A stretch of DNA of 64,000 nucleotides from Candidatus Brocadiia bacterium (GTDB lineage Bacteria > Planctomycetota > Brocadiia > SM23-32): assembly GCA_046538485.1 (NCBI GenBank), contig JBKHIT010000006.1:32001-96000 (forward strand), read 5' to 3'. Shown here one piece after another: positions 16,315 through 28,683 of this stretch; positions within the stretch are counted from its first letter, which is position 1, and each line of letters opens with the position of its first letter. The notes below the pieces were generated by a model. It was not told the origin of the DNA. It worked only from the letters and a program-made list of their open reading frames with translations, and did not search any database. The position numbers and the translations under genes are program-made.

Positions 16315-16489
16315 GGCTCAATCCCTGCTAAGAAAGTCAAAGGGATCGCTATTGTAACGGGCGGCATGCACCGGACAAAATGACGGGCAGGAAACCGGGT
16401 GACTGCAAATTCACTCTGGCCAAGAACACGGAGGTACCAAAGAGACCTGAGGGATAGAAGGGACTATTGATTTTCGGACTTGAACCGGA

Positions 16490-19655: not shown

Positions 19656-19991
19656 TTTCGCCCGCCGCTGGCGCGCTCAGCTGAACTCGAGTCTCAATCC
19701 CCCCGAGCGGGCTGGACTTCAGCCAGCGGCTGGAGTTCAGAACGCGGTGCATAAACCCAACGGTTCACTAACAAAACAGTCAACAATTGACAGCAGGTCA
19801 CGCAGGGAGATCTATCCTGCTATGAACCATTGCCACGAAACCGCGGATGCCAACCGATGCGCCGTCATAGTAGTGCAAGCATCTTGCTTGCAACTTTTCC
19901 GTTATTCTGCCAGAAGAGATCAGGTCAATTATCCGAACTCCATCTGTGACAGGCAGGAGTACCTGTTTAGCCCGGAGATACCCCTTCGTGG

Positions 19992-20097
19992 GTCATTGCG
20001 AGTCCATCGCGAGATGGGCGAAGCAATCTGGTCGTTTTTTCAGCCCAACAGCGAGATTGCCGCGGCGTCCCACAGCGCGGAACGCCTCGCAATGACA
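19992..20097. repeat. REP-doublet-like palindromic element (GTCATTGCGAG...CTCGCAATGAC), gene-less copy
   Basis: 11-bp terminal IR, inner AAGCAATC/GATTGC stems, spacer GTCGTTTTTTCAGCCCAACAGCG shared with 25766-25853; right arm matches 26000-26050 at 48/51 (reverse complement). Confidence 0.85.
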
Positions 20098-20140
20098 TTG
20101 TGGGCGTGGATGGCCGATGTAGGGCACGCTAAATGCATAC

Positions 20141-20245
20141 GCCCTGAAAGGGCAGCATATAACAGCCCGCCGGGGTGCAGAGGGCTGAAAGCCCTCGGAG
20201 CCCTGGGGTACAGGTATGCATTGAGAAAAAAGTGGGCTGAAGGTC
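20141..20245. repeat. GC-rich hairpin cluster (GCCCTGAAAGGGC type, REP-like)
   Basis: GCCCTGAAAGGGC, GAGGGCTGAAAGCCCTC, GGGCTGAAGGTCC; related hairpins at 25915-25927, 28036-28050 and 28223-28330. Confidence 0.6.
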
Positions 20246-20273
20246 CACCACAAAACGACGAAAGATAAAGGCA

Positions 20274-20575
20274 AAGCGGCGCCCCCCGTGGGGGATTCAA
20301 TGGGCAGACGTTCCTGCCATTTTAAATATCATTGGCATTGGCATACCCCCTTCCAGGTGGTCCACCGCGACTCGCGCCCCCGTGGGGGATTCAATTTTCG
20401 GAAATATCAGTTTCACCGGCAGAGCTTACTAAGGCCCTTGCAGCACCCCCGATGTAGTCTACCGCGACTCGCGGTCGCCGCACTCCACAGCCGGCTGGCG
20501 CCGGCGGGGTTCATGCACGACCCGGTGCTGATACGATTGTCCGCCACGCCGCATATTCCGTTCCGGAACAAACAA
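20274..20575. repeat. dispersed composite repeat B, copy 1 (copy 2 at 28453-28633)
   Basis: 20274-20376 vs 28453-28556 differ by 5 substitutions and 1 indel; downstream GGCGGGGTTCAT.CACGA.CCGG.G.TGATACGATTGTC also shared; contains hairpin ACCGCGA-C-TCGCGGT preceded by GTAG. Confidence 0.9.
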
Positions 20576-20586
20576 CAAATGGCGCC

Positions 20587-22032
20587 TTATACAAACCGCA
20601 TACTGTAAAGGTCCGCATCCCGCATTACAAAACGAAGCCGCACCGGTTCTCCAGCCAATTCACTGACATCTGCCCCGTCTTCCCAACTCGCACAACCGGC
20701 GATCCGGTTCCCAAAAATATCCTCGGCTTCCTCCAGACTATAGCCCGGAACCGGATTTCCGTCCGGGTCGCACATTTCCACGCCCATGCTTCCCGCGGCA
20801 CTTGTGCTGTAATTCAGCTCCAGTTTCTTGCCGGAAAACACAAGCGGTTTGGTCAAAAACTCTCCACCGCTGTAGCGAGCCTGTACCGAGCAGAAACCGT
20901 CAAGCCGCAGGCTGTAGCGGCGCAGCTGGTTGCCGGGTTGGGCATAATGCTCATCCACATAAAAACTCATCTCTTCGGGCCCCGTCTGCACAACGCCATT
21001 GGCCGGATAATTGCATCTGGCCGACCAGTGGCTCGCTCCGATTCGCGGACGCACAAAAGCCTCCATAAACGTCCGGTCATACCACGAATGTCCCGGCCGC
21101 GTCGTCATGAAACAGGCGTCGCTGCAGGCCGACATCTGGGTTTCATGCACGCCAATCGCTTCCCCTTCTTCCTCGGTGATAGCCGGACGGTTTCCCATGA
21201 AGCGTGCCGGCAGAGCGACGTAAATGTGCGGCGCGCGGAAGTACGGTCGCGTCTGGTTAATATAGAACTGTTCGGCCGGTGCCGGTTGATCCGCGGTCCG
21301 ATAATCCATTAAAACCCCCGGTCCCCATGACCGAAAATCTTCACTGGTCGCTCGCATAATGGCCCGCAGGCGATCCGGATACGTCGTAGGACCTGTCTCT
21401 CCCGACTCAAAGCTGTCTTTCTCGACAAAAGTTCGGTAATAGGCGACGTATTTCTGCTCGGTCCCGCTCCAGAACCCAACGTTCTGGGAGTCGAAAGCGC
21501 CGTCGGTGATGATCGGTTCGTCTTGCAGCAACTCCCATTCAATTCCATCGGCGCTGACGAAAGCATAAAGCACCGGTTTCTTTCCACCATCTTTTTCTAT
21601 ACAGCCCCGGCTGAACGCCTTGAAACGTTCTTCAGCCGGCACGCCCGGCCGAGTATCGAGGAACGGTGCAAACGTGTGAGTGTACGGTTCTTCCGCAAAA
21701 AAAATGTTGTTGTCTTTTCTGCCATAGCATTCGTGCATGTCCAGGTTCGGACGCTCGAAATGGATGGCATCCGTGCTCTCCGCGACACAATAGGCCGCGT
21801 TTTCATTGGGCACCTGCCAGCCTCGGTAGTACATCAGATACCGGTCCCCATCGTGAATGATCGTATCATACAGCGAAAACGGACCTTCCCACGGTTTATT
21901 ATGATGCAGAACCACCTCCTGCGGCTGTGGTTCGGCCAGTTTAAGGAATGCACCATCGAGCGTATCAATCAGAAGATGATCGACGAACAGTTCGCGGCGC
22001 GAACCGATTTGAATCGGAGCGGTTTCTCCCAT
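20587..22032 (-). CDS. hypothetical glycoside hydrolase-like five-bladed beta-propeller protein
   Basis: IGSRRELFVD, KPWEG, YLMYYRG, AESTDAIHFERPNL, SADGIEW, AFDSQN, RLDGFCS, GEFLTKPLVFSG; ATG at 22032 after AAGGGAG. Confidence 0.65.
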   Translation of the reverse strand: MGETAPIQIGSRRELFVDHLLIDTLDGAFLKLAEPQPQEVVLHHNKPWEGPFSLYDTIIHDGDRYLMYYRGWQVPNENAAYCVAESTDAIHFERPNLDMHECYGRKDNNIFFAEEPYTHTFAPFLDTRPGVPAEERFKAFSRGCIEKDGGKKPVLYAFVSADGIEWELLQDEPIITDGAFDSQNVGFWSGTEQKYVAYYRTFVEKDSFESGETGPTTYPDRLRAIMRATSEDFRSWGPGVLMDYRTADQPAPAEQFYINQTRPYFRAPHIYVALPARFMGNRPAITEEEGEAIGVHETQMSACSDACFMTTRPGHSWYDRTFMEAFVRPRIGASHWSARCNYPANGVVQTGPEEMSFYVDEHYAQPGNQLRRYSLRLDGFCSVQARYSGGEFLTKPLVFSGKKLELNYSTSAAGSMGVEMCDPDGNPVPGYSLEEAEDIFGNRIAGCASWEDGADVSELAGEPVRLRFVMRDADLYSMRFV

Positions 22033-22147
22033 GTCACATTTCTCCCTTATTCTGGAACCTCTGGTTTTTCTGCTCAATTTCTCTTCACCAGCGACATTCG
22101 ACGCTACGCCCCGGCAAAATACCAGAAGGCAATCCTGGGGTCAATAC

Positions 22148-22185
22148 GGCGAAAGGACAGAAGGGACTTAAGAGACATAAGGGAC
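22148..22185. repeat. 9-nt-period short tandem repeat (AAGGGAC core), copy 1
   Basis: GGCGAAAGGACAGAAGGGACTTAAGAGACATAAGGGAC; 37/38 identical to 37421-37458. Confidence 0.85.
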
Positions 22186-22336
22186 AAATGAAAAGTGGCG
22201 CTAACCAGCACTTCACATCGGTGTTCATCTTTGGTTCTCCAATCCCTCCCATTGGCCGTTGCAGTTGCACTTTTTTGATTTCCCGAATAGCCTCTCGATA
22301 ACGCCACGAAAAAATTCGGAACGGAAGGATTTTATC

Positions 22337-25300
22337 ATGGACCCGCTCATACAAAAATCCATACCCCCGCTCACGGACCTGCGCGAAATGGTGCGACAGC
22401 ACATTGTTCGCCGCAGTCTGGCCTGCATGGAAAAGGCGGCCGAACGGCGCGAGGAAGCAACCCAATCTTCCGCAACTTTAAACACATACAAAACAGCCAT
22501 TCGGGAATCGATTCACCGTTTCTATGGCAACCTCCCGGCAGGTGAAACTCAACCAGCTCCGCAAGCGGAACTCGTTTCCACATTCTCACACAACGGGTTC
22601 CGAGTCGAAAATGTGCTTTTTGAATCTTTCCCCGGCTGGCAGGTCAACGCCAGCGTTTACGTCCCTACCGACTACGAACCGCCCTTCCCCGCAGTAATCG
22701 TCCCTGTCGGGCATTCCGGCAAACAGTTCGAGAGCTATCAGCTGCCCTGCCAGTATTTCGCCCGCAGCGGGTTCGTGGCAGTCTGTTTCGATCCGCCGGG
22801 ACAGAGAAGCGAGAAACAACCGGGGAACGACCATTTTAATGACGGCGTGCGCGACTATCCGCTCGGAAAAACCTCAAGCCGATATTTCGTGGCCGACGCA
22901 CTTCGCTGCATCGACTACCTCGCAACACGTGACGACATCGACATGACCCGCGGCATCGCTATGACGGGAGTCTCGGGGGGCGGCACGACCACCACGTTCG
23001 CCGTCGGGCTTGATGACCGGATCTCTGTGATCGGCCCCTCCTGCTGTGTCGCACCACTGGCCGCCATGGATATCACGCAATGCTATGCTGGTTGCCCCGA
23101 AACACACCAGTTCGGGCGCTACTCGGAAGGTATTGACGAAGTCGATCTACTGTGCGCCACCGCACCAAAGCCCTGTCTCCTGATGGCCGGCGAGACCGAC
23201 GAAGTCTTTCGCATCGAAGACAGCCGGCGACTCGCCGAAATAGTGGCCCGATTCTACGAATGCAATGATGCTGGAGATCGTTTCGAGTTCTTTGTCGATT
23301 CCGGCGGCCACGCTTACACGCTCCGCCAGGCCCGGGAATTCACCGGGTTCATGAACTGCTGGCTTTTAGATGAACCCGACCGACCTCTGCTCGAACTGGC
23401 CGAAGCCCGTTGCTCCATGTTGCCGTACAAAGAACTCCAATGTTCCCCTCGCACAGATATCAACATGCGAACGCGTGCGGTAGCCGAAGCCGACCAGTTG
23501 GCCGAACAACGAGAATTAAAACCTCAGCAAATTCGCGAGGCGGCGGCAGAGATAGCCGGGATTACGGGAAGTGTCCCCGTCCCCGACGCCGAAATCGGCG
23601 AACCGTTCCAGGTCTGGGTACACGATTGGCGCTCTTTGATGCTGCGACCCGAGCCCGACATCGAACTCCCGGCAACCTGGCTGACCGGACGCGGCCAACA
23701 GCCCGCCACAACCCTGCTGCATTTTGACGACAACGGACGCCACAGAATGTTGCGGCGGGGAGGCATTTTGACCGGCGCCATGCGGTTTATCGACCGCGAT
23801 CGACAACCGCTCAACCTTCTAACCGTCGACCTCCGTGGATGGGGCGATACAAGGCCCACCATGTACCCCTACGAAATGGCCGGCTGGGGAAGCGTTGATC
23901 GCTACGTAGCTTACGCAACGGCCGCACTCGGGGATCATATCATGGCGATGCGAATTCGCGATGCCCTCGGAACCCTTGCCTGGCTCAAAGAACAACCCGA
24001 GGTCGACCCGTCGCGCATCATCCTCACCGGATCCGGGCTTGGGAGCATGGTTGCCCTGCACGCCGCTGCTATCGATAAGAATATCGGAGCCGTTGTCACG
24101 TCGGAGGGCCTTTCTTCGTTTCGCAGCCTTCTGGAAGCCGCGAATTACCCCTGGCCCGCCGATACATTCATGCCGAACGCGCTGAATTTCTATGACCTGC
24201 CAGAACTCGCAGCAGCGCTGACATGCCCGGTGCGAGCCCACGCGCTCCGCGACGGAACGGGAGCCGCGGCCGGTGAAAAAGAATTGACAAAATGGCAGGA
24301 GCACGACCATATTGTGGCCAAAACCGAGGGGGAAAGCGGCAGTCTACGCAAAAGTATCGAAGAATTGGCCAACCGGTCCGAAGCGATCATAAATCTCCAG
24401 GAACGTCAGCCTTTTCTCTGGGTCAATCCCCACTGGCAACCGGCAAACCAGTGTCTCCACTCCCTTCCAATGGCACACAACGACATCGAAGAGGCGGAAG
24501 CACGCTGGCAAAGGTTTGCACCGCTCCTGGAAAAGCTTTTCCCGGAATTAAGAGAAACAAACGGTATCATCGAGTCGGACTTGCTGCCCGCGCCCTCCCT
24601 CGCGAAACGGATCTTGCCGCCTGATTCTGGCAAACTCATGGTTAAAGCGGATCATGCTCTGCCGGTCGCCGGTTCAATCAAAGCCCGCGGCGGGATCTAC
24701 GCGGTGCTCCATTTTGCTGAATCGGTCGCGCTGGAAAACGGTCTGCTTGAAAACAAGGAGGACGACTACCTGACATTATCCTCGGACGAAGCCAAGCAGG
24801 TCTTTCATACATATGAATTGAGCGTCGCCAGCACCGGGAATCTGGGTTTGAGTATCGGCATCACGGGTTCAGCGCTCGGTTTCCCCGTCACAGTTCACAT
24901 GTCCCACGAAGCCAAAGAATGGAAGAAGGAACGGTTGCGCCACCGAGATGTAAACGTCATCGAACACCAATCCGACTACACCGCCGCCTGCAAAGTGGCG
25001 CGTCAGGAAGCCGCCGATAACCCGCGAAATCATTTCATCGACGATGAGAATTCCGTCGAACTTTTCCTCGGCTACGCCACCGCGCTTCCCCGGTTGAAAC
25101 ACCAGCTGACGCAAGCCGGAATCACCATCGATTCCGAACACCCGCTCTTCATCTACCTGCCCTGCGGCGTGGGCGGCGCACCGGGAGGAATCACATTTGC
25201 CGCACGTCACGTCTTCGGAGACGACGCTCACTGCTTCTTTGTGGAACCGGTCGATGCGCCGTGTATGACTCTCGGGCTCCTCTCGGAGCGCCATTTCGAT

Positions 25301-25681
25301 ACGTCGATCTACGCTCTCGGATTGGACCTGGAAACAGACGCCGACGGGCTCGCGGTATCCAGACCCTCTCGTTTTGTGGGAAAACTGATGGTTCCCTTGC
25401 TGAGCGGATGCTGCACAATGGAAGATGAAGCGATGTACCGCCACGTCCTGGACCTCTACGAAACCGAAAGCATCGAAGTCGAGCCATCCGCCGCAGCCGG
25501 CTGCGTTGTCCCATGGATGCTTTTTGAGACCGATGCGGGCCGTCAGTATCTCGAACAACACACCCTGACGCCGTGTTTGCCGAATACCACACACCTCGTC
25601 TGGACGACCGGCGGGCTTTTTGTGCCTCCGAAACAACATCAGCACTTCCGCGACATCGCCCGGAAACAAAAGAAGAGGTAG
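22337..25681 (+). CDS. dsdA: fusion protein: two acetylxylan-esterase-like alpha/beta-hydrolase domains + C-terminal D-serine ammonia-lyase (DsdA) domain
   Basis: N-terminal VENVLFESFPG, PVGHS, TGVSGGG nucleophile elbow, GGHAY; second domain VDLRGWGDT, TGSGLG; from ~24345 DsdA motifs WVNP, AEARWQRFAP, GIIES, LPVAGSIKARGG (PLP Lys), STGNLGLSIG, FIDDENS, YLPCGVGGAPGG, ADGLAV, EPSA, VWTTGG; single open frame. Confidence 0.88.
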   Translation: MDPLIQKSIPPLTDLREMVRQHIVRRSLACMEKAAERREEATQSSATLNTYKTAIRESIHRFYGNLPAGETQPAPQAELVSTFSHNGFRVENVLFESFPGWQVNASVYVPTDYEPPFPAVIVPVGHSGKQFESYQLPCQYFARSGFVAVCFDPPGQRSEKQPGNDHFNDGVRDYPLGKTSSRYFVADALRCIDYLATRDDIDMTRGIAMTGVSGGGTTTTFAVGLDDRISVIGPSCCVAPLAAMDITQCYAGCPETHQFGRYSEGIDEVDLLCATAPKPCLLMAGETDEVFRIEDSRRLAEIVARFYECNDAGDRFEFFVDSGGHAYTLRQAREFTGFMNCWLLDEPDRPLLELAEARCSMLPYKELQCSPRTDINMRTRAVAEADQLAEQRELKPQQIREAAAEIAGITGSVPVPDAEIGEPFQVWVHDWRSLMLRPEPDIELPATWLTGRGQQPATTLLHFDDNGRHRMLRRGGILTGAMRFIDRDRQPLNLLTVDLRGWGDTRPTMYPYEMAGWGSVDRYVAYATAALGDHIMAMRIRDALGTLAWLKEQPEVDPSRIILTGSGLGSMVALHAAAIDKNIGAVVTSEGLSSFRSLLEAANYPWPADTFMPNALNFYDLPELAAALTCPVRAHALRDGTGAAAGEKELTKWQEHDHIVAKTEGESGSLRKSIEELANRSEAIINLQERQPFLWVNPHWQPANQCLHSLPMAHNDIEEAEARWQRFAPLLEKLFPELRETNGIIESDLLPAPSLAKRILPPDSGKLMVKADHALPVAGSIKARGGIYAVLHFAESVALENGLLENKEDDYLTLSSDEAKQVFHTYELSVASTGNLGLSIGITGSALGFPVTVHMSHEAKEWKKERLRHRDVNVIEHQSDYTAACKVARQEAADNPRNHFIDDENSVELFLGYATALPRLKHQLTQAGITIDSEHPLFIYLPCGVGGAPGGITFAARHVFGDDAHCFFVEPVDAPCMTLGLLSERHFDTSIYALGLDLETDADGLAVSRPSRFVGKLMVPLLSGCCTMEDEAMYRHVLDLYETESIEVEPSAAAGCVVPWMLFETDAGRQYLEQHTLTPCLPNTTHLVWTTGGLFVPPKQHQHFRDIARKQKKR

Positions 25682-25765
25682 GTATCGACGATCAAGAATA
25701 GCATTTTCCGGCATCCGAGTGGTACGCATCTGGCGCCTTTTGCATCGGCCATTGAGAACTTACCT

Positions 25766-25853
25766 GTCATTGCGAGGCAGCGTAGCCCCGGCGATTTCGT
25801 TGTTGGGCCAAAAAACGACGAGATTGCTTCGTCACTGCGTTCCTCGCAATGAC
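25766..25853. repeat. REP-doublet-like palindromic element, gene-less copy
   Basis: Perfect 12-bp IR GTCATTGCGAGG (25766-25777)/CCTCGCAATGAC (25842-25853); spacer CGTTGTTGGGCCAAAAAACGAC homologous to that of 19992-20097 in the opposite orientation. Confidence 0.88.
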
Positions 25854-25999
25854 CGGGTGGCGTCTACCTGCCGTTGGGAGGGGTTAGTATGTCTGTATGA
25901 AGTACATTATCCTTAGCCCTTCGGGCTGACGCGTCATTATGAAGTATCCTTCCGTGATTTACGATGACATCGGCGTTGCATTAGCTGTCCACGCTCACA

Positions 26000-26430
26000 T
26001 GTCATTGCGAGGCGTTCCGCGCAGCGGGACGCTGCGGCAATCTCGCTGTTCCTGTTCAACAAGAAGCAGTAAACCATGGCAAAACCAATGTGGGTATACA
26101 TTATGACCAACAAAAGCAATACAACTATCTACACAGGTGTAACGAACAGCCTCCATCGCCGAGTACATGAACATCGCACGGGGAAAGGCAGTAGCTTCAC
26201 CAAGAGGTATAAGATTCGGAAGTTGGTGTATTACGAGTTCTACGAGAAACCGCAACGCGCAATTGAGCGAGAAAAACAAATCAAAGGTGGTTCACGTAAG
26301 ACTAAGATTCAACTCATCGAAACCGTTAATCCGCAATGGGAAGATCTTTACGATGAACAGTCGGCCGACATTACGCCGATTGAAGCAAAACGACGAGATT
26401 AATTCGTCACTGCGTTCCTCGCGACGACCG
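26000..26430 (+). mobile_element. putative GIY-YIG-carrying palindromic element (left arm 26000-26050, right arm 26387-26430)
   Basis: Both arms match the arms of the gene-less elements (48/51 and 40/44) and enclose only the GIY-YIG gene. Confidence 0.6.
26076..26402 (+). CDS. GIY-YIG nuclease family protein (small, UPF0213-like)
   Basis: WVYIMTNKSNTTIYTGVTNSLHRRVHEH...FTKRYKIRKLVYYE...AIEREKQIKGGSRKTKIQLIETVNPQWEDL. Confidence 0.95.
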   Translation: MAKPMWVYIMTNKSNTTIYTGVTNSLHRRVHEHRTGKGSSFTKRYKIRKLVYYEFYEKPQRAIEREKQIKGGSRKTKIQLIETVNPQWEDLYDEQSADITPIEAKRRD

Positions 26431-26483
26431 TATATGAGTCACCTGGAGGCAAAGTCAACTGCCAAACCAAAGGAGAAACAACA

Positions 26484-27506
26484 ATGGATCAGAAAGCCCT
26501 CGTTTACAAAGGATACCCCCCGGATCATTGTTGCTGCGATAGCACTTTGCGGATTCTACCAAACGGCGAATTCGCCGCCTTTTTCATGACCGGCGGCCTG
26601 CGAGAACCGGACATGCGAAATCATATTGCGCTCTGCCGTTCCACCAACCCCGGACTCGCCTGGTCTCACGAACCAGAAATCGTTTTGCAGAGCAACGACC
26701 GGGCCTGTCTCCTCTCCGAAGTTTATGTTGACAACGACCGCATCGTCGTCCAGGTCACCACCCACGATGGAAGTTTTGGGGACTGGCGCAATTTCACCAT
26801 TGAAAGTCGGGACAACGCCGGGACCTGGAGCGAACCAGAACCTTTCGATCCGCTGCCGCAACGCGGATTCGTGCGCAACCGTTATGTCGCTTCCTGGGGC
26901 GAGTGGTACCTGCCACTTCAACATTATGAAACCCACGGAAATGCGGAGGTCGCCCCCCAGACCGACGGTTCGTTCAAACGCCCCCGCAACGGGGTTCTGA
27001 TAAGTTCAGACCGGGGGCAGTCGTGGACAAAATCCGAGACCGTAACCGGTGCGAACGCCTGGTCAGAAAACAATGTCGTCGAACTCTCCGATGGTTCCAT
27101 GGCCATGCTCATCCGCTCCGACGGCGCAGGTTGTCTGAAGCGCACGGATTCCGAGGACCGCGGACGCAGCTGGACCCCGCCGCGTCCCACCGGGATCCCG
27201 AACCCTGGAAGTAAAGCGCGTCTCTACCGTTTCAGTGACGGACGCATACTGCTCGTCCACAACCCAAATTCGGAGACATCCCATCCGAACGCCCGCCCGC
27301 AGGCCGCCTGTCAGCGCAATCCGCTTTCAATCTGGATTTCGGACGACGATATGTGCACGTGGGGATATAAACGCGATCTTACAGATTTCCCCGGTATGCT
27401 CGCCTACCCCGACGGCATCCTCGATGAGGAGAACAACATCCTGCACATCGCCTTCGACTACAACCGCCACGACGTTATCTACTGGGGTGCCGAACTTCCG
27501 GGCTAA
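26484..27506 (+). CDS. sialidase-like BNR/Asp-box beta-propeller protein (exo-alpha-sialidase family)
   Basis: Asp-boxes SRDNAGTW, SSDRGQSW, SEDRGRSW, SDDDMCTW; SENNVVELSDG..MLIR; RNPL; AYPD; AAGGAG RBS. Confidence 0.82.
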   Translation: MDQKALVYKGYPPDHCCCDSTLRILPNGEFAAFFMTGGLREPDMRNHIALCRSTNPGLAWSHEPEIVLQSNDRACLLSEVYVDNDRIVVQVTTHDGSFGDWRNFTIESRDNAGTWSEPEPFDPLPQRGFVRNRYVASWGEWYLPLQHYETHGNAEVAPQTDGSFKRPRNGVLISSDRGQSWTKSETVTGANAWSENNVVELSDGSMAMLIRSDGAGCLKRTDSEDRGRSWTPPRPTGIPNPGSKARLYRFSDGRILLVHNPNSETSHPNARPQAACQRNPLSIWISDDDMCTWGYKRDLTDFPGMLAYPDGILDEENNILHIAFDYNRHDVIYWGAELPG

Positions 27507-27808: not shown

Positions 27809-28683
27809 CGGGTCTGACGACTCGGCCCACAAGCTGGAGAGCCTGTGCTACATGCGTACTTCGTGCCTGTCAGGGGTCTGGCTGCGAGGAGAAAAGTTTT
27901 TTGTTCTCCCGTGCACTTCTGCAAGATTTGTCCGCCTCAAGTCCAGCAAGATGCCTGCCGGTACTCTGACGGCTGGCTATGCCCGGCCGCGAGGCATCCT
28001 GCCCGTACCCGTTCATCCGCGGCTACCTCTGCGTCGCCCCCTTCGGGGCTTTTATGTTATGGGACCGATCTGACCCGGAGCTTGCGCGCCAAAAGACAGC
28101 GCGACCGCGCACCGGGCTAGCCCTGCACCGCCCACTCGTGGGCTTTGCTTGCCGGGCCGTTAGTCGACCCAAGCGGGTCAGCTCTGCACGGCCCACTTCC
28201 TGAGCATCCCTGTGATGATTTGAGCCCCTGAGAAGGGGCGATCGCAGACATAGCCCGGGGCGCGCCCGTTGTGCGGGCAAGCCCCGGGACCCGCACGCCT
28301 CACATAATTTCCAAACCCCGAAGGGGTGACGCAGCACCGCTTTTACTTTCGTCCACAGAGATAAAATGTCCGGCGAAAAATTATAGGAACCTTTTTTCTT
28401 GATTTCAGGCTTATCGGATTGCCGTAGCATCTGAGATTTTCATACCAATTGGAAGCGGCGCCCCCTGTGGGGGATTCGATGGGGCAGACGTGCCTGCCAT
28501 TTTAAATATCATTGGTATTGGCATACCCCCTTCCAGGTAGTCCACCGCGACTCGCGGTCGGCGGCGGGGTTCATACACGAACCGGGGGTGATACGATTGT
28601 CAGGCACACACCCCATTCGGTTTCGGATCAAACGGTAACGACTCCGGGCCTAACGACCCGGTCCACAGGCTGGAGAGCCTGTG
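27809..28683. repeat. repeat-mosaic intergenic region (copies of repeats A and B, GTAG-type and GCCCC-GGGGC hairpins)
   Basis: 39-nt direct repeat 27809-27847/28645-28683 (34/39) ending in CACARGCTGGAGAGCCTGTG; repeat A 27884-27946; hairpins 28036-28050 and 28223-28330; repeat B 28453-28633. Confidence 0.8.

Follow-up and report, generated by a model that had tools for sequence, protein, structure and literature searches.

Introduction

What does a stand-alone GIY-YIG nuclease do in the middle of a palindromic repeat, and does it spread that repeat? The question is raised by a gene in the window, by which we mean the whole stretch of 64,000 nucleotides analyzed here from a Candidatus Brocadiia bacterium (contig JBKHIT010000006.1, positions 32,001 to 96,000). 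The gene is bracketed by two hairpin arms that recur in gene-less copies nearby. A sequence-only reading had seen in this arrangement an autonomous element with internal-deletion derivatives, had tentatively given the nuclease the part that the tyrosine transposase RAYT plays for REP doublets, and had considered the association possibly undescribed.

The association and the REP analogy are already in print, since Chenal et al. (2025, PMC11893778) describe the family, its layout, its cutting of hairpin ssDNA and its likeness to REP transposases; theirs was the only paper on nuclease-repeat pairing that our literature search found. According to its text, Ssn proteins are small GIY-YIG nucleases of a single domain, with NTS/SRM hairpins on either side of the gene and cd10448 (GIY-YIG_unchar_3) as their top CDD match. 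Cleavage, shown for four members, is confined to ssDNA and falls a few bases upstream of the hairpin. The hairpin is bound only as ssDNA, on the strand reading GTC-stem-C, and the cut precedes the GTC head on its 5' side by a few bases; the determinants named in the DNA are the C that follows the stem and the three bases ahead of it. In vivo, SsnA reduces the transformation of N. meningitidis. In their discussion the authors note that NTS-ssnA-NTS resembles an insertion sequence, draw on REP transposases as a comparison and propose domestication. The text reports cutting and not strand joining, which leaves the RAYT role of the nuclease unsupported. The CGTC REPs had been defined by Di Nocera et al. 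(2013, PMC3733652), who found no transposase for them.

Architecture of the locus and of the repeat family

The features of the locus are collected in Table 1, and around the gene the empty dimer comes first, followed after 147 nt by the left unit, the gene and the right unit. The hairpin of the left arm consists of a GTC head, an ATTGC/GCAAT outer stem, an internal loop, an inner stem and a C. The same plan holds for the unit in general, in which GTC is followed by an outer stem of 5 bp, an internal loop rich in purines, an inner stem that varies and C. Among 200 units in the flanks of homologues the outer stem is ATTGC/GCAAT in 166, and T or C precedes the GTC in 178.

Table 1. Features of the nuclease locus and related repeats (window coordinates)
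Feature	Position	Strand	Description
GIY-YIG gene, Ssn family (putative)	26076..26402	+	ORF of 108 aa; only family Pfam GIY-YIG PF01541, E 4.3e-16
Left arm	26001..26050	+	intact interrupted hairpin 26001-26042 and tail; DNA fold -12.7 kcal/mol
Flank common to left arm and commonest empty-dimer subfamily	25973..26000	+	blastn starts and flank listing; lies beyond the arm of the sequence-only reading
Right arm	26387..26430	-	degenerate hairpin unit in inverted orientation, overlaps ORF end; canonical in run X3
Gene-less head-to-head dimer directly upstream of cassette	25766..25853	.	single long hairpin, -23.9 kcal/mol
Gene-less 105-nt head-to-head dimer, commonest subfamily	19992..20096	.	
Larger unit enclosing the 105-nt dimer	19960..20140	.	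ends are an imperfect outer inverted repeat of TAYGCGTTTAG type

Alignment reproduced the identities on which the sequence-only reading was built: the right arm (26387-26430) is identical to 25812-25855 in 40 of 44 positions, and 48 of 51 positions agree between the left arm (26000-26050) and the reverse complement of 20047-20097. The insert 26051-26386 indeed takes the place of the few central bases of the empty dimers and comprises 336 nt, and the order of the two tails around the gene is that of those dimers. The limits proposed for the arms stood only in part. Blastn similarity of the left arm to empty copies ends at 26050 in 31 of 43 rows, but in about half of the 43 begins further left, at 25969-25984; 17-30 more bases are common to the left side and the commonest empty subfamily. 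The right arm is degenerate, with head and tail substituted and the outer stem absent from the DNA fold, and the last codons and the stop of the ORF fall inside it.

A related strain sequenced in another study (run X3, of which contigs only were used) differs in the right arm at 26388, 26401, 26402, 26423 and 26425. Its contigs place a stop at 26388-26390 and carry the canonical bases at 26401, 26402, 26423 and 26425, so that the gene of this strain ends at 104 aa, ahead of an intact arm; compared with it, the window allele of the right arm and gene end looks derived. Note also that the X3 contig has 91 differences over 26021-27300 as against 15 over 24900-25849, and that the 40 of 100 differences that were listed start at the right arm, a possible recombination boundary at the repeat.

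The repeat is not the family of three copies it had been taken for but extends throughout the genome of the window (assembly G000, 88% complete). A strict unit pattern yielded 69 matches as against none for the reversed control, and a loose pattern yielded 144 units where a Markov control predicts about 23. The loose units form 36 head-to-head dimers (19 with a length of 105 nt) as against 5 tail-to-tail pairs. Of 200,000 random gene-sized intervals in G000, none had a unit on both sides and 0.83% had one on one side.

Many of the dimers sit within an outer inverted repeat that is common to a 315-nt family without the hairpin unit. This outer repeat is of TAYGCGTTTAG type, and across G000 it is common to hairpin dimers and a distinct family of 125-315 nt, with many copies at contig ends. 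No long element or transposase was found inside six paired sites of the outer repeat in G000. None of the nine Y1_Tnp matches in G000 has the present unit nearby, and several carry other repeats. Within this 88% complete genome, a RAYT or TnpA encoded elsewhere is thereby rejected as the source of the repeat. A GTAG-headed repeat of GCCC-GAAA-GGGC type abuts the 105-nt dimer at 20098-20200 and resembles the repeats beside the Y1 transposase genes of G000, forming mosaic repeat clusters.

No sigma-70-like site was found in 25600-26600 and no Rfam match in 19700-26600. Other observations in the window concern an unusual ORF of 1140 aa at 22259-25681, either a fusion or a read-through, with two alpha/beta-hydrolase (acetyl-xylan-esterase-like) regions and a full D-serine ammonia-lyase domain; four short tandem repeat tracts of AAGGGAC type at 16429, 22148, 30814 and 37421; and several direct repeats of 30-90 nt common to 20274-20573 and 28453-28633, about 8.1 kb apart.

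The protein and its family

A search of NCBIfam assigned no family to the window protein. Its residues Y8, Y19, R29, H33 and E66 are conserved in the alignment of homologues, and residues 66-74 read EKQIKGGSR, the motif of the class designated T below. With an alignment of 90 rows the predicted model reached a pLDDT of 87.5, whereas single-sequence prediction was poor (pLDDT 55). Beyond about residue 95 the chain is a low-confidence tail that extends into the right arm. In fold comparison the model resembles the GIY-YIG domains of UPF0213, Slx1 and UvrC, with UPF0213 proteins as the nearest solved structures. The window gene is the one small GIY-YIG gene found in the 88% complete G000, the other Pfam match being a frame of 623 aa.

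With 108 aa and a single GIY-YIG domain the protein lies within the Ssn limit of at most 150 aa. The text of PMC11893778 defines Ssn homology by E < 1e-10 over > 75% of the query, or more strictly by 60% identity. As a proxy for the N. meningitidis protein we used the N. gonorrhoeae protein L142, which has 94 aa, Y6, Y17 and E64 at the published numbers and 3+3 flanking SRMs, and which we take as the SsnA orthologue; the query was extended past the L142 stop. This proxy query found the window gene with E 1.7e-18 over L142 residues 5-94, inside the first threshold; the identity of 40% lies below the stricter one. Y8, Y19 and E66 of the window protein align with Y6, Y17 and E64 (N. meningitidis numbering), the residues mutated in the published work. 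In a quick tree of 97 columns the window protein groups with the Neisseria protein apart from six of eight outgroup rows (SH-aLRT 99), the other two being long rows that fall inside; 13 of 141 branches are starred, and the place of the window protein is not among them.

At 0-2 mismatches the published SRM motif has no match in the window arms, and it occurs within 500 nt of only one of 80 close homologues (the best 80 of at least 424). The motif is not required of every Ssn member, because the published text itself gives SRMs beside 71% of homologues. Oriented hairpins with a GTC head and a C after the stem are present on both sides of the gene, the right one degenerate here and canonical in X3, and units of the window type (T) keep both published determinants, in the three positions ahead of the stem and in the C that follows. 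The repeat family has the features of CGTC REPs in its CGTC/TGTC head, AT at the start of the stem and head-to-head dimers; their 8-9-bp stem with a 4-5-nt loop is absent, as the window hairpin is interrupted. Judged by sequence, the window gene is filed as a putative Ssn with a variant hairpin.

The closest known systems compare as follows. As described in the text of PMC11893778, Ssn and the window system have in common a single-domain GIY-YIG protein of about 95-110 aa with catalytic Tyr/Tyr/Glu, the order repeat-gene-repeat, a GTC head, a stem starting with AT and a following C, and many dispersed copies. The published Ssn hairpin is a perfect stem of 8-9 bp, whereas that of the window has a 5-bp outer stem, a purine-rich internal loop and a variable inner stem. 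NTS-type Ssn proteins carry KQLKKWNR.W in place of the KQIK[AG]GSR.K of the window class, and the host of the window system is not Neisseria. The CGTC REPs, as far as the text of PMC3733652 goes, have the same CGTC/TGTC head, AT-start stem, short tail and mostly head-to-head heterodimers with no tyrosine transposase adjoining. In the wording of that text, four families have stems of 8-9 bp and loops of 4-5 nt as against the interrupted hairpin of the window, which one of them may yet share, and no nuclease gene is linked to them, the string 'GIY' having 0 occurrences. The REPIN-RAYT system or REPtron (TnpA-REP, HUH Y1), presented in part in the text of PMC3733652, likewise has one nuclease gene flanked by its own hairpins, many gene-less doublets and joint variation of enzyme and repeat. 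The window system differs from it in having a GIY-YIG hydrolase and no HUH/Y1 domain, and CGTC instead of GTAG heads. UPF0213/YhbQ (PDB 1zg2, 1ywl) agrees with the window protein in fold and size, but the identity in the fold match is 28%, and the distant GIY-YIG proteins examined were without repeats.

Association of nuclease and repeat in homologues

A genome scan with the window protein matched at least 602 stretches, at least 424 of them relatives; the best 80, from many phyla, were kept. In 74 of the 75 homologues with full flanks among these best 80 of at least 424, a repeat head lies no more than 150 nt upstream or 180 nt downstream of the gene; the repeat is on both sides in 59 of the 75 and forms an inward pair in 48. 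Control windows at least 700 nt away contained a head in 20 of 702 cases. Note that the head patterns were composed after the homologue flanks had been seen, and that the control was scored with identical patterns. In an outgroup of eight distant GIY-YIG proteins, seven were without a repeat call and the single call was read as a tRNA stem. The association of this nuclease with the repeat, as suggested in the sequence-only reading, is thus real, and it is general.

Two observations concern other small GIY-YIG genes. At three distant loci (L110, L117 and L119) such genes were seen by eye to lie directly beside tRNA-like sequences. One genome (G115; L314, L319 and L321-L327) gave nine weak matches to the Ssn alignment with E from 3e-14 to 3e-7, open frames of 89-128 aa that probably form another multi-copy small GIY-YIG family.

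Hairpin classes and the motif after the catalytic glutamate

A structure-based classifier applied to the best 80 of at least 424 homologues assigned 63 to the window type T, 10 to class C and one to class P, with six uncalled. Class C has a ATTCTGAG-like interrupted stem, and class P a perfect, NTS-like stem. When a P-flanked protein served as the seed of another scan, 78 of 80 were P and two were uncalled. The protein sequence right after the catalytic Glu differs between the classes, being mostly KQIK[AG]GSR.K in T, KQIKGW.R.K in C and KQLKKWNR.W in P. On a quick tree of 146 rows the class labels need 6 changes as against 50.4 in shuffles, with none of 200 shuffles as low. This tree omits 50 of the 80 P-seeded rows (chosen at random), one duplicate and five distant loci, and two labels were set by hand (window to T, L117 to none). 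Because support is low and kin share labels, the result is to be read as clustering and not as co-evolution. The motif rule was then applied to 30 loci fetched later, two of which are one duplicated locus; it agreed in 27 and conflicted in none, two giving no repeat call and one no motif call. From sequence, then, the short protein motif predicts the hairpin class, and the expectation that the class of repeat follows the type of nuclease was borne out.

Among 301 genomes of the phylum, and with T-unit counts that include the gene's own arms, a T-class enzyme was detected in 11 of the 22 with at least 10 strict T units, in 2 of 22 with 1-9 units and in 0 of 257 with none. In the remaining 11 of the 22 T-rich genomes no T-class enzyme was detected: seven had no match at E 1e-15 and four had only P or C enzymes, among them G213 with 93 T units and a P-class match only. 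Five of the seven were searched again with the alignment and gave weak matches only, including the single-contig genome G308 with 93 units. These counts weigh against a strict dependence of T repeats on a detected T enzyme. Note that the protein tree mixes host phyla.

Evidence on movement

In four cassettes of the f5 group, nucleotide homology reaches from one head to the other; relative to the start codon it begins at about -66 to -94 and stops at about +296 to +321. Among 19 close cassette pairs, picked by hand, the neighbouring DNA is unrelated in 14 and related in 5, and cassettes with 77-96% protein identity occupy unrelated sites both within one family and within one genome. One genome (G261) holds two cassettes in different settings, with 94% identity across 411 nt; one of the two is frameshifted. 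Two equal-scoring copies in the same genome were rejected as a move, since they lie in an exact 6.3-kb duplicate that we read as an assembly duplicate. L042 and L053, near-identical loci from two distant phyla, have 1.9 kb of flank in common and may be mis-binned, so they do not mark the unit.

Internal-deletion derivatives, postulated for the window itself, were found in a relative. The single contig of G038 gave 30 matches to the protein, and in 20 fetched regions the 3' half of the gene is present in 18 rows; in 16 of these its fusion to the left unit falls at one junction, give or take 2 nt. There are about 21 places with such half-genes, which are real internal-deletion derivatives multiplied after one deletion. 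For the two empty copies in the window the proposal found no support, as 0 of 36 dimers in G000 combine the left and right inner stems of the gene, a single apparent hit having proved spurious; a blastn search with the gene found no fragment elsewhere in G000.

The G038 derivatives lie in a larger composite, 536-630 nt long in 9 of 12 measured cases, with flank identities of 0.39 and 0.37 outside as against 0.96 inside, and the same composite in G261 holds the frameshifted full cassette. In view of this larger composite, hitch-hiking of the copies in both genomes is a possible account. Partial duplications in G038 begin just before a GTC head. The G038 composite, of about 560 nt, carries at each end a direct repeat of 105 nt whose start is a GTC-AT head (examples C1:535000-536600, L126, and C1:1335200-1339900, L139). 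It contains the left repeat, the 3' half of ssn and the right repeat at about 21 places, in tandem at one, and no terminal inverted repeat was seen in it.

Comparison with relatives gave no clean pair of empty and filled sites. A DNA search of 40 relatives found no region syntenic with the window locus, and 26050 is joined to 26387 on no listed contig of four runs, a search of contigs alone that does not establish absence; the contig joints from 26050 to about 25810 in these runs are empty dimers elsewhere. G038's own site was rejected as a pair, because the four of four relatives without repeats there have a different upstream gene.

Discussion

We consider it likely that the window gene encodes a single-strand-specific endonuclease of the Ssn family and that its arms are cognate hairpins of CGTC type, of an interrupted-stem class T that lies outside the published SRM motif. 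What this analysis contributes to that assignment are the protein family features, the layout and the match between motif and hairpin class; the T enzyme in 11 of 22, 2 of 22 and 0 of 257 genomes with many, few and no T units also counts in favour of the reading. By analogy with the other members of the family, the window enzyme can be expected to cut T hairpins as they cut theirs. Whether Ssn also initiates the spread of the repeats is evenly balanced. The homology that ends at the GTC heads, the unrelated neighbours in 14 of 19 pairs and the roughly 21 half-gene derivatives of G038 argue for it. Against the reading as a whole stand the arms that depart from the SRM motif even at 2 mismatches, the 11 of 22 T-rich genomes without a detected T enzyme, the dimers in G000 and G038 that ride larger composites which another enzyme could move, the failure to find a clean empty/filled site (40 relatives, four runs and the G038 site) and the weak tree.

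Such a spread could proceed as follows. In a head-to-head unit each strand would carry, at its 5' end, a single hairpin in the correct orientation, so that cuts would fall on both strands outside the unit and be staggered. Fill-in after staggered cuts would double the unit, and the stretch between the arms would be exchanged where repair drew on another repeat. Cuts followed by host recombination or fill-in, templated by another repeat, could give rise to tandem arrays, and the same repair could carry the head-to-head unit from one repeat site to another, whether or not it contains the gene. DNA hydrolysis by GIY-YIG enzymes involves no covalent intermediate, so joining would fall to host repair, and the enzyme would be an initiator dependent on that repair and not a strand-joining transposase. 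The scheme fits the tandem arrays, the partial duplications in G038 and a gene that has the left arm of one subfamily and the right arm of its neighbour.

Only a little short of an even chance is a role in the service of the host: a settled nuclease would trim incoming or recombining ssDNA at repeats, like SsnA in Neisseria transformation, and the repeats would spread otherwise, for instance in inverted-repeat units moved by another transposase. The gene would then stay among the repeats because repeats recombine. The effect on transformation in vivo reported for N. meningitidis in the text of PMC11893778 agrees with this, as do the one gene copy in G000, the many dimers within the outer repeat of the 315-nt family, the T-rich genomes without a detected T enzyme (11 of 22) and the differences of X3, which start at the right arm with none in 25646-26387 (40 of 100 listed), as if a recombination tract ended there. 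It is harder to reconcile with the six paired sites, which hold no long element or transposase with the outer repeat, with cassettes of 77-96% protein identity that occupy unrelated sites in one family and in one genome, and with a protein tree that mixes host phyla. A host role and an Ssn that initiates spread have the same biochemistry, and both can hold.

An autonomous element, in which the nuclease alone excises and inserts as a self-sufficient transposase and the empty dimers are internal deletions, seems improbable. It would explain why the unit ends at GTC heads, why true deletion derivatives with one common junction (16 of 18 G038 rows) exist and why the tails flank the gene in empty-dimer order. 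However, no dimer of 36 has the arm pair of the gene, no gene fragment lies elsewhere in G000, and the G038 derivative rides a larger composite whose G261 version contains a full but frameshifted gene; hydrolysis of DNA without a covalent intermediate is a further argument against it. The text of PMC11893778, too, reports cutting only. Chance flanking of a UPF0213/YhbQ-type repair nuclease, with the repeats acting as RNA hairpins or owing their spread to a RAYT, has the UPF0213 proteins as nearest solved structures in its favour and is nevertheless refuted by the repeat beside 74 of 75 homologues (from the best 80 of at least 424) and the 0 of 200,000 bracketed intervals, with seven of eight outgroup proteins lacking a repeat call (the eighth read as a tRNA stem), Y1 genes that carry other repeats and no Rfam match in 19700-26600, so that we give it next to no credence.

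Returning to a family of hairpin-directed single-strand endonucleases as the preferred reading, the system as such is already published. Beyond it are the hairpin class outside the SRM motif, the protein motif that tracks the class, the moved cassettes and the half-gene derivatives; their novelty is judged by the literature found and by the texts of both papers. The T-class motif strings were not found in the main supplements of PMC11893778, and the class may appear in its figures or in other supplement files. We would tentatively go one step further, to a proposal that we think somewhat more apt to fail than to hold. Ssn would be the mobiliser that the CGTC REP superfamily has lacked: a unit bounded by GTC heads and about 380-430 bp long would spread itself and its gene-less and half-gene derivatives through an ssDNA cut at the head and copying by host repair, and the choice of the hairpin class to be cut, out of at least three, would lie with residues 69-76 after the catalytic Glu.

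The hairpin class found beside 63 of the best 80 homologues (of at least 424) escapes the published motif, so that both the census of Ssn and the range of its cutting specificities are likely to be undercounted. As a motif predicts the hairpin class, a residue swap becomes a direct test. The moved cassettes and amplified half-genes of the relatives bear on what spreads CGTC repeats, a question that the texts of PMC11893778 and PMC3733652 leave open. If the wider proposal is true, these units would constitute a transposase-free, homing-like element, and two large specificity classes would be added to the toolkit of ssDNA nucleases.
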